64,000 nucleotides of DNA from a virus (IMGVR_UViG_3300031954_000001:1-64000), one strand, 5' to 3'. Positions 1,960 to 6,070 are shown, counted from the first letter of the stretch. The notes: generated by a model not told the origin, from the sequence alone. Program-made: numbers and translations.

Positions 1960-2046
1960 ATGAATTACAAGATCGTTTCGCGTCGTAACGGCTGGATCAC
2001 GGTCATGTGGTCCGATGGACGCGTCACCCGCCACAGCATCGGTTGA
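1960..2046 (+). CDS. Small hypothetical protein (28 aa)
   Basis: GGGAG RBS before ATG; MNYKIVSRRNGWITVMWSDG. Confidence 0.45.
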   Translation: MNYKIVSRRNGWITVMWSDGRVTRHSIG

Positions 2047-2108
2047 TTGACGGGACGGCCACGCGCACCGTGCGCGTGGCCGGCCGTGAGTCAATCCTGG
2101 CTCTGACC
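2024..2108 (+). ncRNA. Repeated multi-stem RNA motif, copy 1
   Basis: tcacccgc..cggttga..cgggacggccacg-loop-cgtggccggccgtgag..ctctgacc; homologous to 2568-2649 and 5988-6070. Confidence 0.6.
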
Positions 2109-2141
2109 TGCGCAAACATGCGCCTACGGAAAGGTTTTACC

Positions 2142-2546
2142 ATGTCAAACGAGATCTACTTCACCCGCAACACGCGCCGCGCCGGCCGTATCGGCGACAC
2201 CATGGTGGTTGTCACTGAGGGCGCGCGTATCACGATCACGCTGCAGCCTAACGGCCAGCCGGCCAAGGTCACCGTGGCCAAGGCCAAGCCGGCCACGCCG
2301 GCCACCGCGCCGGCCACGCCGGCCACCAAGCCGGCCACCGCGCGCCGCACGCCGACCACCAAGCCGGCCACCGCGCGCCGCACGCCGGCCACGCCGGCCA
2401 AGGTCACGCCGGCCAAGGTCACGCCGGCCAAGGTCACGCCGGCCACGCCGGCCAAGGTCACGCCGGCCACCAAGCGCCAGAGCAACGTCGCGCGCCGCAA
2501 GGAAGTTCTCACCCGCATGCGCGCGCAGGCACGCGCCACGCGCTGA
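2142..2546 (+). CDS. Histone H1/HupB-tail-like basic protein (PAK/TPA repeats)
   Basis: GGAAAGG RBS before ATG 2142; repeats PAKVT and KPATARRT. Confidence 0.8.
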   Translation: MSNEIYFTRNTRRAGRIGDTMVVVTEGARITITLQPNGQPAKVTVAKAKPATPATAPATPATKPATARRTPTTKPATARRTPATPAKVTPAKVTPAKVTPATPAKVTPATKRQSNVARRKEVLTRMRAQARATR

Positions 2547-2567
2547 CGCTCCCACCGCTGGGAGGTT

Positions 2568-2649
2568 TCACCCGCTAGCACGGTTGACGGGACGGCCACG
2601 CGCCACGCGCGCGTGGCCGGCCGTGAGCTGCAGCTAGCACGCTCTCACC
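2568..2649 (+). ncRNA. Repeated multi-stem RNA motif, copy 2
   Basis: Same conserved blocks as 2024-2108; begins just after palindrome 2549. Confidence 0.6.
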
Positions 2650-2690
2650 CGCGCGTGTGATACGCGCATAACGTCCCATGGGAGGACGCA

Positions 2691-3932
2691 ATGACCAGCA
2701 CCAAGCCGGCCACCAAGGCCAGCACCAAGGCCAGCACCAAGCCGGCCACCAAGGCCACCGCGCCCAAGCGCGTGAGCGAAGCGGCGTACAACCGCGCGGT
2801 CAAGTCCGCGCGCGCCGCGTCCAACCGCGCCGGCGAGGCGAATTGGATCATCGGCGATGCGGCGCTGGCCGTAGCCACCGCGTACGGTGAGAGCCGGCTA
2901 GAGCGGTTCGCCGACGACATCGGTTACAAGATCGGCACCGTGCGCAACCTGCGCACCTGCGCGGCCAACTACCCGCCGGCGGAGGTCGCGCGTGACCTGC
3001 AGAGCCACACCGTCTACATGGTGTTCGGCAAGCTTGACGAGCGGTTCACGCTGATCGAAAACGGCAACGACGGCCAGCCGTGGACCGTGAGCGCGGCGCG
3101 CGCGTACGTGGACGGTCCCGCCGTGGTCGTGGATCCTGACGGCGACGGCGACGGCGACGGCGACGGCGACGGCGACGGCAACGGCGCCGGCGACGCGCCG
3201 GTTGACGCGCTTGCGCAGGCTGACGGCGAGGTTGACCGTCTGTTCGGCGAACTGACCAAAGCCATCACGGCAGCGAACAAGATCCGCCGCGCACAGAAGA
3301 TGGACCTTTACCCGCGCGTCGCACAGCCGGCGCCGCAGGCCAAGGACACCAAGCCGGCCACGCCGGCCAAGGCCAGCACCAAGGCCACCGCGCTCCCGAT
3401 GCTGCGCGAGGACGGATCAGACCCGTTGCTGGACGCCGTCGCGGCCAAGCTGGCCGACGTCACGCCGGCCAAGTGTGACGCTCACGGCGTCGCACACAAG
3501 CCGGGTAGCAAGGCCGCGCAGGCATGCGCCGACGCGCAGGCCAGCGTAACCGTCGCCGAGCCGGCCACGCCGGCCAAGCCGGCCAAGCCGGCCAAGGCCA
3601 CCAAGCCGGCCACGCCGGCCAAGGCCACCGCGCCCAAGGCCACCGCGCCCAAGGCCACCGCGCCCAAGGCCACCGCGCCCAAGGCCACCGCGCAGGCCAA
3701 GCCGGCCACGCCGGCCAAGGCCACCGCGCGCAACACCTCGCCCAAGGCCAGCACCAAGGCCACCGCGCCGGCCACGCCGGCCAAGGCCAGCACTCGCGCG
3801 CCGCGTACCTACCGGCAGAGCGACGCGGACCTGATCGCGCTGCAGGCGGCCAACCCCGCGCTGGCCGAGCGCATCGCGCAGCGTCGCGAGCAAGGCCGGC
3901 TCGCCACCGCCGCACGGGTGAACGGCCGCTGA
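2691..3932 (+). CDS. DNA-binding protein: LmbU-like HTH region plus histone-like KATAP repeats and DG tract
   Basis: GGAGG RBS; WIIGD..YG....GYKIGTVRNLR resembles the LmbU-family WxLGDW..YG...QTLRNY pattern; low-complexity Lys/Ala/Pro tails. Confidence 0.65.
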   Translation: MTSTKPATKASTKASTKPATKATAPKRVSEAAYNRAVKSARAASNRAGEANWIIGDAALAVATAYGESRLERFADDIGYKIGTVRNLRTCAANYPPAEVARDLQSHTVYMVFGKLDERFTLIENGNDGQPWTVSAARAYVDGPAVVVDPDGDGDGDGDGDGDGNGAGDAPVDALAQADGEVDRLFGELTKAITAANKIRRAQKMDLYPRVAQPAPQAKDTKPATPAKASTKATALPMLREDGSDPLLDAVAAKLADVTPAKCDAHGVAHKPGSKAAQACADAQASVTVAEPATPAKPAKPAKATKPATPAKATAPKATAPKATAPKATAPKATAQAKPATPAKATARNTSPKASTKATAPATPAKASTRAPRTYRQSDADLIALQAANPALAERIAQRREQGRLATAARVNGR

Positions 3933-3953
3933 CCTTCCCACCGCTGGGAAGAT

Positions 3954-4107: not shown

Positions 4108-4176
4108 CAAACCTCCCACCGCTGGGAGCAACCGACCCCCTACCCGCGCCACGCGCGCCCACGATCGGAGGATCCG

Positions 4177-4443
4177 ATGACCGCCGCTACGCTCTACCGG
4201 CCGGCCGGCTATGGCCTGACCGCCTACGTGCCAAGCGGACCGCTCCGCGCGGGTGACATCCTGACCAGTCCGCGCACGGGTCAGCGGTTCGTGTTCCGCT
4301 ACGCGGTCTCGCGCACGACCGCCACCGCGTTCGGCAAGATCGCGGTCTCGCCGATCCCGCTGGACTCCATCAGCGGGACGCCGGCCGACTACACCGTAAA
4401 CCTCTACGTCATCGCGTTCGGCGCCCACCTCAAGGTGGGCTGA
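4177..4443 (+). CDS. Hypothetical protein
   Basis: GGAGG RBS, high GC3. Confidence 0.75.
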   Translation: MTAATLYRPAGYGLTAYVPSGPLRAGDILTSPRTGQRFVFRYAVSRTTATAFGKIAVSPIPLDSISGTPADYTVNLYVIAFGAHLKVG

Positions 4444-4522
4444 CGCCGGCGCGCGCAAACCTCCCACCGCTGGGAGCAATCAATCACCCGCCGGCCAAGC
4501 CGGCCCAATGAGGAGAAACATC

Positions 4523-4843
4523 ATGTCCGATACCCGCCGGCGCACCAAGAGGTGGCCGGATGAGATCCCGTTCGCCTACGCGCGCCAGTGCTGCGTCTCA
4601 CCTGACCGTAGCCACGCGCACCGTGGCGACGCGCAGGCCACCCGCGCGCTGCATGTCCCGCCGCGTCCGCGTACCGCTGATGACGCGATAGCGGACGGCG
4701 TGGTCACGCTGGCCACGGTCCCGATGGCCGACGCCACGCAGGACCAGCTGACCTGCCCGTCGTGCGCGTGGGACTTTGACACGCGCATGGTCAAGCCGTG
4801 CCATGAGCACGCGGAACTTCCCACCGCTGGGAGCAACCGATGA
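4523..4843 (+). CDS. Hypothetical Cys/His-rich protein
   Basis: GAGGAG RBS before ATG 4523; CxxC motif. Confidence 0.65.
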   Translation: MSDTRRRTKRWPDEIPFAYARQCCVSPDRSHAHRGDAQATRALHVPPRPRTADDAIADGVVTLATVPMADATQDQLTCPSCAWDFDTRMVKPCHEHAELPTAGSNR

Positions 4844-4984
4844 CCAGCCAGGGATTCAACCCCGATGACGCGTACGACGCGATGTGGGATGACGTGCGCG
4901 TGCGCTATGACTGGCCGGCCCGAACACCACGATGCGCAGGCCACGCGGGTGGATCACCGGCCAGGATGCCGTGCTCACCCGCCC

Positions 4985-5392
4985 TTCCCACTGGTGGGAG
5001 CAACCACCCGCCAGACCCTAACCACGACCACGATCAGGAGACAAACATGGCCAAGATCAGCTCGCACAACGGGCGCACTACGACGCAGGTCCGCGCGACG
5101 CGACCGGGTAAGCCGGACACGTGGCTCACGCTCACCGTCACCTCAGACGGGCGGCTACTGCGCAAGATCACGACCGCGCACCGTTCGCAGTGGGGCACCC
5201 ACTACTCGAACAGCAACAACAAAGTCATCGCCACGGTGACCAGCCCGGATGACGTCACGGCCGAGCGGCTTATGCAGATTGCGGCGCGGATGGGATACCC
5301 CGCGCCGAAGGACGCGTGACCGAACCTCCCACTGGTGGGAGCAACCACCCGCCAGACCTTCACCCATGACCACGATCAGGAGACAGACCATG
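4985..5392 (+). repeat. ~65-bp imperfect direct repeat (palindrome plus RBS leader) bracketing one gene
   Basis: cccactggtgggagcaaccacccgccagacc..gaccacgatcaggagaca..atg at 4985-5049 and 5326-5392. Confidence 0.9.
5047..5319 (+). CDS. Hypothetical protein
   Basis: CAGGAGAC RBS before ATG 5047 (the ORF is also open from 4840). Confidence 0.75.
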   Translation: MAKISSHNGRTTTQVRATRPGKPDTWLTLTVTSDGRLLRKITTAHRSQWGTHYSNSNNKVIATVTSPDDVTAERLMQIAARMGYPAPKDA

Positions 5393-5965
5393 ACCACCAA
5401 GACCACCACCGACCTGCGCCTCGCCGTCCGATTCGAGGACAGCCCGTACAACTCGTTCGGCGACCACTACTGCCACGTGTACGTGATGCCCGTCGTCATG
5501 GCGCGCGGCAAGTACGGCGACCAGCGGTACGAGGCGCACAACGTGGACAGCTACGACATCGACGTGCCGGCCAGCGTGAGCGCGCTCAAGGGCCTGCGCG
5601 TCAAGGCGCAGATGGACGACAGGTCCGGCTACTTCTACGGCTACCGCGTGCATTTCGACATCGACCAGCTCACGCTGGACGAGGGCGAGCGCGCGCTACC
5701 GATCCTGCGCCGGCTGGACAAGCGGATGACCGCGCTGTCCGACCAGTTCGGCTACCCGCGCGACATCGTCCAGTTCCTGGCGCACCTCGCGAACGCGATG
5801 GGCCTGGCCGGCAAGCCATTCGTCACCCGCGTGACCGATGAGGCGGACTACGAAGGCCACGGGCACCGGTCCCGCGACGTGGACAGCCTGCGCTACTGGC
5901 TGGACGACCAGGCCAAGGCATGGCGCGAGCGGCACGGGATCACCGTGACCGAAGGCGCCGCGTAG
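5390..5965 (+). CDS. Hypothetical protein
   Basis: CAGGAGAC RBS; strong codon bias. Confidence 0.85.
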   Translation: MTTKTTTDLRLAVRFEDSPYNSFGDHYCHVYVMPVVMARGKYGDQRYEAHNVDSYDIDVPASVSALKGLRVKAQMDDRSGYFYGYRVHFDIDQLTLDEGERALPILRRLDKRMTALSDQFGYPRDIVQFLAHLANAMGLAGKPFVTRVTDEADYEGHGHRSRDVDSLRYWLDDQAKAWRERHGITVTEGAA

Positions 5966-5987
5966 AAACCTCCCACCGCTGGGAGCA

Positions 5988-6070
5988 TCACCCGCTAGCC
6001 CGGTTGACGGGATGGCCACGGTGCCCGCGCACCGTGGCCGGCCGTGAGCACGCGCTAGCTTGCTCTGACC
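5988..6070 (+). ncRNA. Repeated multi-stem RNA motif, copy 3
   Basis: Central stem ggccacggtgc/gcaccgtggcc is a compensatory variant of ggccacgcgc/gcgcgtggcc. Confidence 0.6.

Follow-up and report, generated by a model that had tools for sequence, protein, structure and literature searches.

The window analyzed here, i.e., the first 64,000 nucleotides (64 kb) of a 108,794-bp linear virus record from IMG/VR (IMGVR_UViG_3300031954_000001:1-64000; CheckV completeness ~52%), carries three copies of a GC-rich hairpin of ~60 bases between the first genes of the phage (2024-2108, 2568-2649 and 5988-6070). Each copy is predicted to fold as a single imperfect rod, and sits in a slot between genes that is occupied by a type II hammerhead elsewhere in this genome and, at an orthologous junction, in related phages. 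We tentatively read the element as an RNA-level punctuation hairpin, i.e., an RNase III-type processing site or a 3′-end stability hairpin, and weigh below the other roles that such a hairpin could play. Judging by gene content, the record comes from a long-tailed soil actinophage.

Three strand-specific copies between the first genes

A first-pass annotation, made from the sequence alone, had described a thrice-repeated RNA motif at these positions, and all three copies are indeed present, on the + strand only. The core pattern was matched five times, against 0.62 matches expected from shuffles. A covariance model built from the three copies, as the annotation had proposed, scored them at 85-102 bits on the + strand and 60-77 bits lower on the − strand, and a scan of the whole 108,794-bp record with this model returned nothing beyond the three copies above 29 bits.

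The rod of copy 1 spans 2041-2096 (+ strand; model match 2024-2108, 85.1 bits) and consists of a lower helix (GGUUGAUU/AGUCAAUC), a G.G mismatch, the short helix ACGG/CCGU, a GA/G internal loop and a 12-bp apical stem with the loop CCG; its first bases contain the TGA stop codon (2044-2046) of a small open reading frame (ORF). In copy 2 (rod 2574-2638, + strand; model match 2568-2649, 102.1 bits), two lower helices (GCUAGC/GCUAGC and CGGUU/AGCUG) are followed by the G.G mismatch, ACGG/CCGU, the GA/G loop and an 11-bp apical stem with the loop CACGC. Copy 3 (rod 5994-6059, + strand; model match 5988-6070, 91.9 bits) has the lower helices of copy 2 and a 12-bp apical stem, the tip of which reads GUGC/GCAC in place of CGC/GCG, with the loop CCGC.

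All rods are placed alike, just after a stop codon (or after a palindrome behind a stop) and 30-55 nt ahead of the next start. As annotated, every copy ends shortly before a ribosome-binding site (RBS), with 20-42 nt to an RBS-preceded start codon, and the palindrome CTCCCA-N4-TGGGAG ends 3 nt before copy 2 (palindrome at 2549-2564, + strand) and 2 nt before copy 3 (5970-5985, + strand). Both palindromes are predicted to fold independently: when the upstream palindrome is included in the folded sequence, it pairs separately from the rod (pair probabilities 0.7-0.99; 0.70-0.97 for the palindrome at 2549-2564). The pentamer GCUCU follows the rod in all copies, and an extended base helix between it and the 3′ arm of the palindrome (GGGAGC) was rejected, with a probability of at most 0.07 once the whole palindrome is included.

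One long rod rather than three stems

All structures of the element discussed here are thermodynamic predictions, and the GC-rich coding DNA of this genome also folds strongly; an RNALfold energy scan was thus non-discriminating, coding regions reaching equally low energies. The three-stem architecture originally proposed for the copies did not hold up under folding. Both RNAfold and RNAalifold return one long hairpin whose two flanks are paired to one another, forming a rod of 24-27 bp per copy at −48.3 to −49.5 kcal/mol, vs. −37.7 to −40.5 kcal/mol for the three-stem layout (i.e., better by 9-11 kcal/mol), and we rejected the three-stem fold on both energy and the RNAalifold consensus. The minimum free energies from RNAfold range from −49.5 to −52.1 kcal/mol per copy (z-scores of −3.6 to −4.2 against dinucleotide shuffles). 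Within the rod, only the GA/G internal loop, one G.G mismatch and the variable apical loop are unpaired. These distortions are invariant in four out of four full copies, as is the base of the apical stem, and the tip and lower helices vary with pairing kept.

The covariation noted in the stems is real but thin, with only two or three independent variants behind it. In a MAFFT alignment, 88.5% of the cells pair and both sides change in 3 out of 26 pairs (RNAalifold covariation term −0.62). The apical tip comes in two compensated versions, CGC/GCG and GUGC/GCAC, with a related hairpin at 15617 representing a G.U variant of the second, and the lower helix of copy 1 is compensated as well. On the + strand, ~five independent G.U pairs are found vs. 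one or two A.C mismatches; this bias and the orientation of all copies in the direction of the genes fit an RNA-level reading. Finally, the conserved half-sites GGCCACG/CGTGGCC are spaced by 11, 11, 12, and 14 nt, and the bases in between stay self-complementary, which indicates that selection or a mutational process acts on a hairpin, and makes a duplex-DNA site for a dimeric protein unlikely.

Alternation with hammerheads at an orthologous junction

Relatives were reached through homologues of the product of gene 5390-5965 (P0002; 19 proteins, 50-100% identity), and 14 relative loci were compared (L031-L044). All are soil metagenome contigs: GenBank phages gave no DNA or protein match to the element region or to the neighboring proteins, and an IMG/VR search with a neighboring protein found no relatives.

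Within the window, the position between palindrome and RBS is shared, as the first-pass annotation had pointed out, by a type II hammerhead-like element (14898-14964, + strand; 30.7 bits, E 4.5e-4, below the Rfam gathering threshold of 37). The CUGA-GA core of this hammerhead includes an extra base (CUGAACGA), and it may thus be a slow or dead variant.

The same alternation is found across phages when comparing the ~120 nt upstream of the P0002 orthologue, which hold a rod, a hammerhead, or a palindrome only. The window, L031, and L035-L041 have the palindrome only, L032 has the palindrome and a rod (92.5 bits), and L033 (1556-1625) and L034 (261-330) have a type II hammerhead directly behind the preceding stop codon (42.9 bits, above the gathering threshold of 37). 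In L036, L037, and L040 (P0002 homologues sharing 66-71% identity with that of the window), the same slots are used by a different repeated unit, made of a hairpin and a 27-bp rod ending in GCGTGAGAGACACGC (L037 2620-2725 and 3030-3135, L036 1-120, L040 ~490-592). One of these GCGTGAGAGACACGC-type units lies behind a homologue of the small ORF, where copy 1 sits in the window. In the L037 unit, a GCGUGU motif is predicted to be able to pair upstream or downstream, and an alternative fold is possible.

The L037 and L040 rods are clearly related to each other (z 10). Homology between these and the rods of the window was rejected (alignment z of 1.2-2.3 against shuffles), and the GGCC-N-GC-GTGAG that both share also occurs in coding DNA, such that we treat the two types of rod as analogous, not homologous. 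Across phages, the slot and the rod shape are conserved and the sequence is not, while the hammerhead core is conserved. The presence of unrelated rods in the same slots points to a structural, rather than a sequence-specific, role.

The element had been presented as an orphan structured RNA near ribozymes, perhaps catalytic or an RNase substrate. The first part of this description stands, as the element is repeated, strand-specific, strongly folding, intercistronic, and found in the slot of a hammerhead; the catalytic role is not supported. A new class of self-cleaving ribozyme replacing the hammerhead would account for the shared slot, both within the genome and at the orthologous junction, and for the invariant unpaired or mismatched nucleotides of the copies. 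However, with nearly all nucleotides paired, only 3 loop nucleotides, one mismatch and the variable apical loop are left to form a core, a partial copy further downstream (described below) retains the apical stem alone, and the slots of relatives at 66-80% identity hold unrelated rods while hammerhead cores are conserved, which is not expected of a catalytic core. We consider this reading very improbable, and the least likely of the rivals. Nor do the copies match any Rfam family or known ribozyme class, as had been stated for the hammerhead, twister, pistol, and hepatitis delta virus cores: an Rfam 15 cmscan of 1900-6200 with permissive filters (E ≤ 10) returned six weak chance matches, none over a copy, and a scan of the whole window at gathering thresholds returned nothing (classes covered: hammerhead, twister, twister-sister, pistol, hatchet, hepatitis delta virus-like, hairpin, glmS, and Varkud satellite). 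The alternative of an RNase substrate fits the equivalence of slots with the hammerhead, which now extends across phages.

Boundaries of the element

Parts of what had been annotated as conserved in the element belong to other features. The “stem 1” of copy 1 (TCACCCGCCACAGCATCGG) consists of the last codons of a conserved 28-codon ORF (1960-2046, + strand), so that copy 1 proper starts at ~2041 and includes the stop codon of this ORF. With conserved counterparts in L035 (570-668, 32 codons) and L037 (from 2901), the ORF (MNYKIVSRRNGWITV...) is probably a real small gene. The window's element is missing behind it in both of these relatives, L035 being without any rod there.

The linkers, described as conserved, are not supported as conserved single strands, each being either part of another repeat or base-paired within the rod. 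TCACCC is also found in C/A-rich leaders lacking the element, here and in relatives, the UUGA “linker” is paired within the rod, and the 3′ tail of copy 1 is a member of a separate repeat family, TCTGACCTG, with 7 exact sites (10 with one mismatch) on both strands, all between 474 and 2110. A longer version, TCTGACCTGCGCAAAC, occurs at 1380, 1757, and 2102, and the sites of both kinds look operator- or iteron-like, in a largely non-coding left end. As for GCTCTSACC, it is not enriched in the window (42 matches vs. 48.9 expected).

These boundaries bear on another reading, in which the element would be an RNA binding site for a phage or host protein recognizing the GA/G loop and the G.G mismatch, either for antitermination (of the lambda nut or HK022 put type) or as a translational operator. 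The location of the invariant distortions in the middle of the helix, with variable helix ends, would suit such a site, as would the presence of three copies close to where the early region begins, each followed by a GCUCU that may recall boxA. Conversely, the rods of relatives differ in sequence and lack the same distortions, the tail of copy 1 comes from another repeat family and GCTCTSACC shows no enrichment, and no candidate protein was identified. Against an antitermination RNA of the put or nut type specifically, which would call for a two-hairpin put fold, or boxA plus boxB, downstream of an early promoter, there are also the fold as a single rod and the absence of a promoter nearby. 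Overall, we regard a protein-binding role as improbable.

Gain and loss of copies among close relatives

The distribution of the element is very narrow. The exact core is absent elsewhere in IMG/VR (all 27 matches being chance matches without the hairpin), and the 23-base core pattern was found once in 185,579 prokaryote species genomes, as a chance match in coding DNA. A host repeat, either repetitive extragenic palindromic or miniature inverted-repeat transposable element, was rejected because no genuine copy exists in these genomes or elsewhere in IMG/VR.

The element is carried only by near-identical soil relatives, L031 (copy 2, truncated) and L032 (two copies of the copy-3 type). One L032 copy is located upstream of the P0002 homologue, a position at which only the palindrome is seen in the window and L031, and the L032 gene preceding this copy is replaced by a different gene of 250 nt. 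The two L032 copies flank one gene as direct repeats of >100 nt. The difference between L032 and the window and L031 shows that copies are gained and lost at gene junctions. Similarly, copy 1 appears inserted at the end of the conserved small ORF, which is 4 codons shorter than in L035. The three copies are paralogues, with the one at the small ORF's end as the probable source of the others, and they may double as homology patches where genes are swapped.

One could thus see the element as a DNA-level imperfect palindrome, i.e., a mobile unit, a recombination joint, or a site for cruciform or single-strand hairpin formation, with the RNA fold as a by-product. The patchy presence of copies between near-identical phages, the replaced gene next to one of them, the long direct repeats in L032 and the inserted look of copy 1 are all in line with this, as are recent substitutions, which do not keep pairing, and the precedent of the promoter-early stem-loop (PeSL) cassettes of T4-type phages (Arbiol et al., 2010; PMC2839356). 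Yet all copies lie in gene direction with G.U rather than A.C on the transcribed strand, neither a target-site duplication nor a transposase context was found, and the element fills the slot of an RNA-level device, the hammerhead. Acting as a recombination joint would moreover not displace an RNA function, with which it is compatible, so that we see a purely DNA-level element as unlikely. An integron attC-like site was rejected, since inspection showed that the core sites do not fit, and an integrase context is lacking.

Gene-end hairpins, termination and promoters

A further “partial copy” had been annotated at 15616-15654. It is real, with 17 nt identical to copy 3, but amounts to the apical hairpin alone (15617-15652, + strand; ~15 bp, without the lower helices, 13.4 bits with the covariance model), and is placed between the stop codon of gene 14985-15605 and the leader of the next gene. 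Unrelated perfect or near-perfect GC hairpins of 13-17 bp are also found at gene ends (51696-51733, 58499-58539, 59781-59815, 46312-46345, and 3994-4026); several of them adjoin palindromes, and none has a U-tract. Within this general habit of gene-end hairpins, the three copies form a subset related in sequence.

Hairpins at gene ends bring to mind factor-independent terminators or attenuators, in this case without U-tail, which would yield nested early transcripts and require antitermination for later read-through. All copies and hairpin 15617-15652 do present a strong GC hairpin 0-25 nt from a stop codon, the apical stems (11-12 bp, nearly all G-C) resemble those of canonical terminators, and at 51696, 58499, and 59781 the unrelated gene-end hairpins adjoin palindromes; tail-less terminators also reportedly have a precedent in the actinophage phiC31. 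What follows the hairpins, though, is GCCGUGAG and similar sequences without any T-run, where a canonical terminator has a U-tract of 7-9 nt, which excludes the canonical type, and a scan of 1-7000 for terminators likewise returned none that coincide with a copy. This reading is weakened further by the U-tract need of the mycobacterial RNA polymerase, the purified enzyme showing no termination at hairpins lacking a U-tract, even with NusA and NusG (PMC3993855). In addition, three terminators in series within 4 kb, with no promoter in between, would silence the downstream genes, and termination needs neither the invariant loop and mismatch nor lower helices located 15 bp below the apical stem. 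Taken together, we judge a terminator or attenuator somewhat unlikely.

No sigma-70-like promoter was found anywhere in 1-7000. The TTGAC in the 5′ arm of the rod was considered as part of such a promoter and rejected, no −10 element being present at any spacing and the scan having found none. Hairpin promoters of the N4 type, which are read by a virion or phage RNA polymerase, have a stem of 5-7 bp and a 3-nt loop. This identity was rejected too, the stems of the element being 11-12 bp long with loops of 3-5 nt, and no phage RNA polymerase being found in the ~52% complete record, which has no PF00940 match and whose only ORF of >1500 amino acids encodes a tape measure protein.

A possible role in transcript punctuation

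It is tempting to propose that the element acts as punctuation in the RNA, although we hold this reading with some reserve. Once transcribed, the rods would form in a long rightward early transcript, assuming that transcription passes through the copies, and RNase III, putatively that of the host, could cut at the invariant GA/G loop and G.G mismatch. If left uncut, a rod would be expected to block 3′-to-5′ exonucleases. By either route, the upstream cistron would gain a stable 3′ hairpin and the stabilities of neighboring cistrons would be uncoupled, such that the rod would do the job of the self-cleaving hammerhead found at equivalent junctions.

Several properties of the element are consistent with this scheme. 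An idealized RNase III substrate comprises about two helical turns, or 22 bp (PMC3867540), and the predicted rods reach 24-27 bp. Helix distortions at RNase III target sites lead to single-strand cuts that leave protective 3′ hairpins (PMC3867540), and the GA/G internal loop and G.G mismatch provide distortions of this kind at the putative target site. There is no room for a promoter between the rod and the next start codon, and no signal of one was found there, which implies that the downstream genes must share the transcript.

Other observations count against a punctuation hairpin cut by RNase III. GC pairs at certain positions are antideterminants for the E. coli enzyme (PMC3867540) and the stems of the element are very GC-rich, and neither an RNase III nor a dsRBD protein (with a domain binding double-stranded RNA) was found encoded in the record. 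Hairpin 15617-15652 is too short for two helical turns, which suggests that the common denominator may be the GC-rich gene-end hairpin instead. The covariation comes from few independent variants, as noted above, and the recent variants in near-identical relatives mostly break pairs: an L032 copy carries a single A.C mismatch within its apical stem, and three changes in the truncated L031 copy disrupt pairs, although these fall at a contig end, a place of frequent errors.

A bolder version of the punctuation reading, to which we give little weight, is that this actinophage group has a toolkit of interchangeable modules for punctuating RNA, of which the rod is one, freely swapped with type II hammerheads at the same junctions, as either the substrate of a dedicated phage or host endonuclease or a minimal new self-cleaving motif.

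Other features of the record

The palindromes found ahead of copies 2 and 3 belong to a larger family. CTCCCA-N4-TGGGAG occurs at ~22 sites of the window between 2549 and 58562 (e.g., 4113, 4461, 5326, 6677, 14877, and 27674), 2-8 nt past stop codons and oriented as the genes. Related phages use other palindromes in the same places (GTCCGACTAGTCAGAC, GTCCGACCAGTCGGAC, TTCCGGACGTCCGGA, and TTCCGG-N-CCGGAA). Being uniform within a genome and divergent across genomes, the palindrome may be recognized by a lineage-specific factor.

ORF 4840-5319 stays in frame through the palindrome at 4985-5000 and the RBS of the next gene without a stop codon, and its counterpart in L032 (1-320) has a TAG there, followed by a different small gene resembling a membrane protein; a read-through fusion created by module exchange is possible. 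At ~16700-16730 and ~23430-23460, two sites downstream of palindromes share CGTATACC-N-GTGATACAAT, and look like a pair of promoters of the host type (extended −10) serving a later block of genes.

The record opens with a 21-bp inverted repeat (20-62), followed by arrays of 17-bp and 22-bp tandem repeats (183-460), which may be genome-end or origin features. Elsewhere, the record encodes DUF4192 and DUF6192 proteins and a fused primase-helicase-PolA, and its largest product is a tape measure protein of 2656 residues, from the only ORF of >1500 amino acids.

Significance and comparison with known systems

Repeated hairpins between the early genes of phages are a known kind of element, of which this one is a new and very narrowly distributed example. 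Its most interesting aspect is the three-way alternation between hammerhead, rod, and nothing at a single orthologous junction, so that swapping the modules would offer a test of function. Should the processing reading be true, this phage group would represent a compact natural experiment on the purpose of bacterial and phage hammerheads, and the rod a portable hairpin with which cistrons could be insulated in high-GC actinobacteria. If its role is limited to that of a gene-end hairpin or recombination joint, the element would be ordinary phage genome furniture.

Rho-independent terminators lacking poly-U tails have reportedly been described, going by the title of the report, in the early region of the actinophage phiC31. 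To the extent that this title tells, these are similar to the rods in being GC-rich stem-loops without U-tail at gene ends in an actinophage early region. The rods differ in having lower helices and invariant distortions that are superfluous for termination, and no downstream promoters were found.

The PeSL cassettes of T4-type phages are likewise repeated stem-loops between small early genes, at the insertion, deletion, and replacement junctions of close relatives, and such indel and replacement junctions are seen here when comparing L032 to the window and L031. Unlike PeSLs, the rod has no sigma-70-like promoter, its terminator activity is hypothetical, and the phage infects another host group.

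The early RNase III signals of T7, five of which are found in an early precursor of ~7 kb (PMC3867540), resemble the rods in forming a set of several imperfect hairpins, about two turns long and internally distorted, located between the cistrons of an early polycistronic phage transcript and on the transcribed strand only. The rods have no sequence relation to these signals, are far more GC-rich, and number only three copies, and their cleavage is a prediction; most other junctions are here marked by a much shorter palindrome, and the host is an actinobacterium.

Lastly, clustered hammerheads that flank single genes of prophages and phages have been interpreted as cutting long transcripts into gene-length mRNAs (Perreault et al., 2011; PMC3088659). 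The rods share with these the intercistronic slot, the interchangeability at an orthologous junction, and a presumed role in transcript cutting. They differ from them in having neither a hammerhead core nor a family match and nearly no unpaired conserved nucleotides, such that cutting at the rods would need a protein nuclease.

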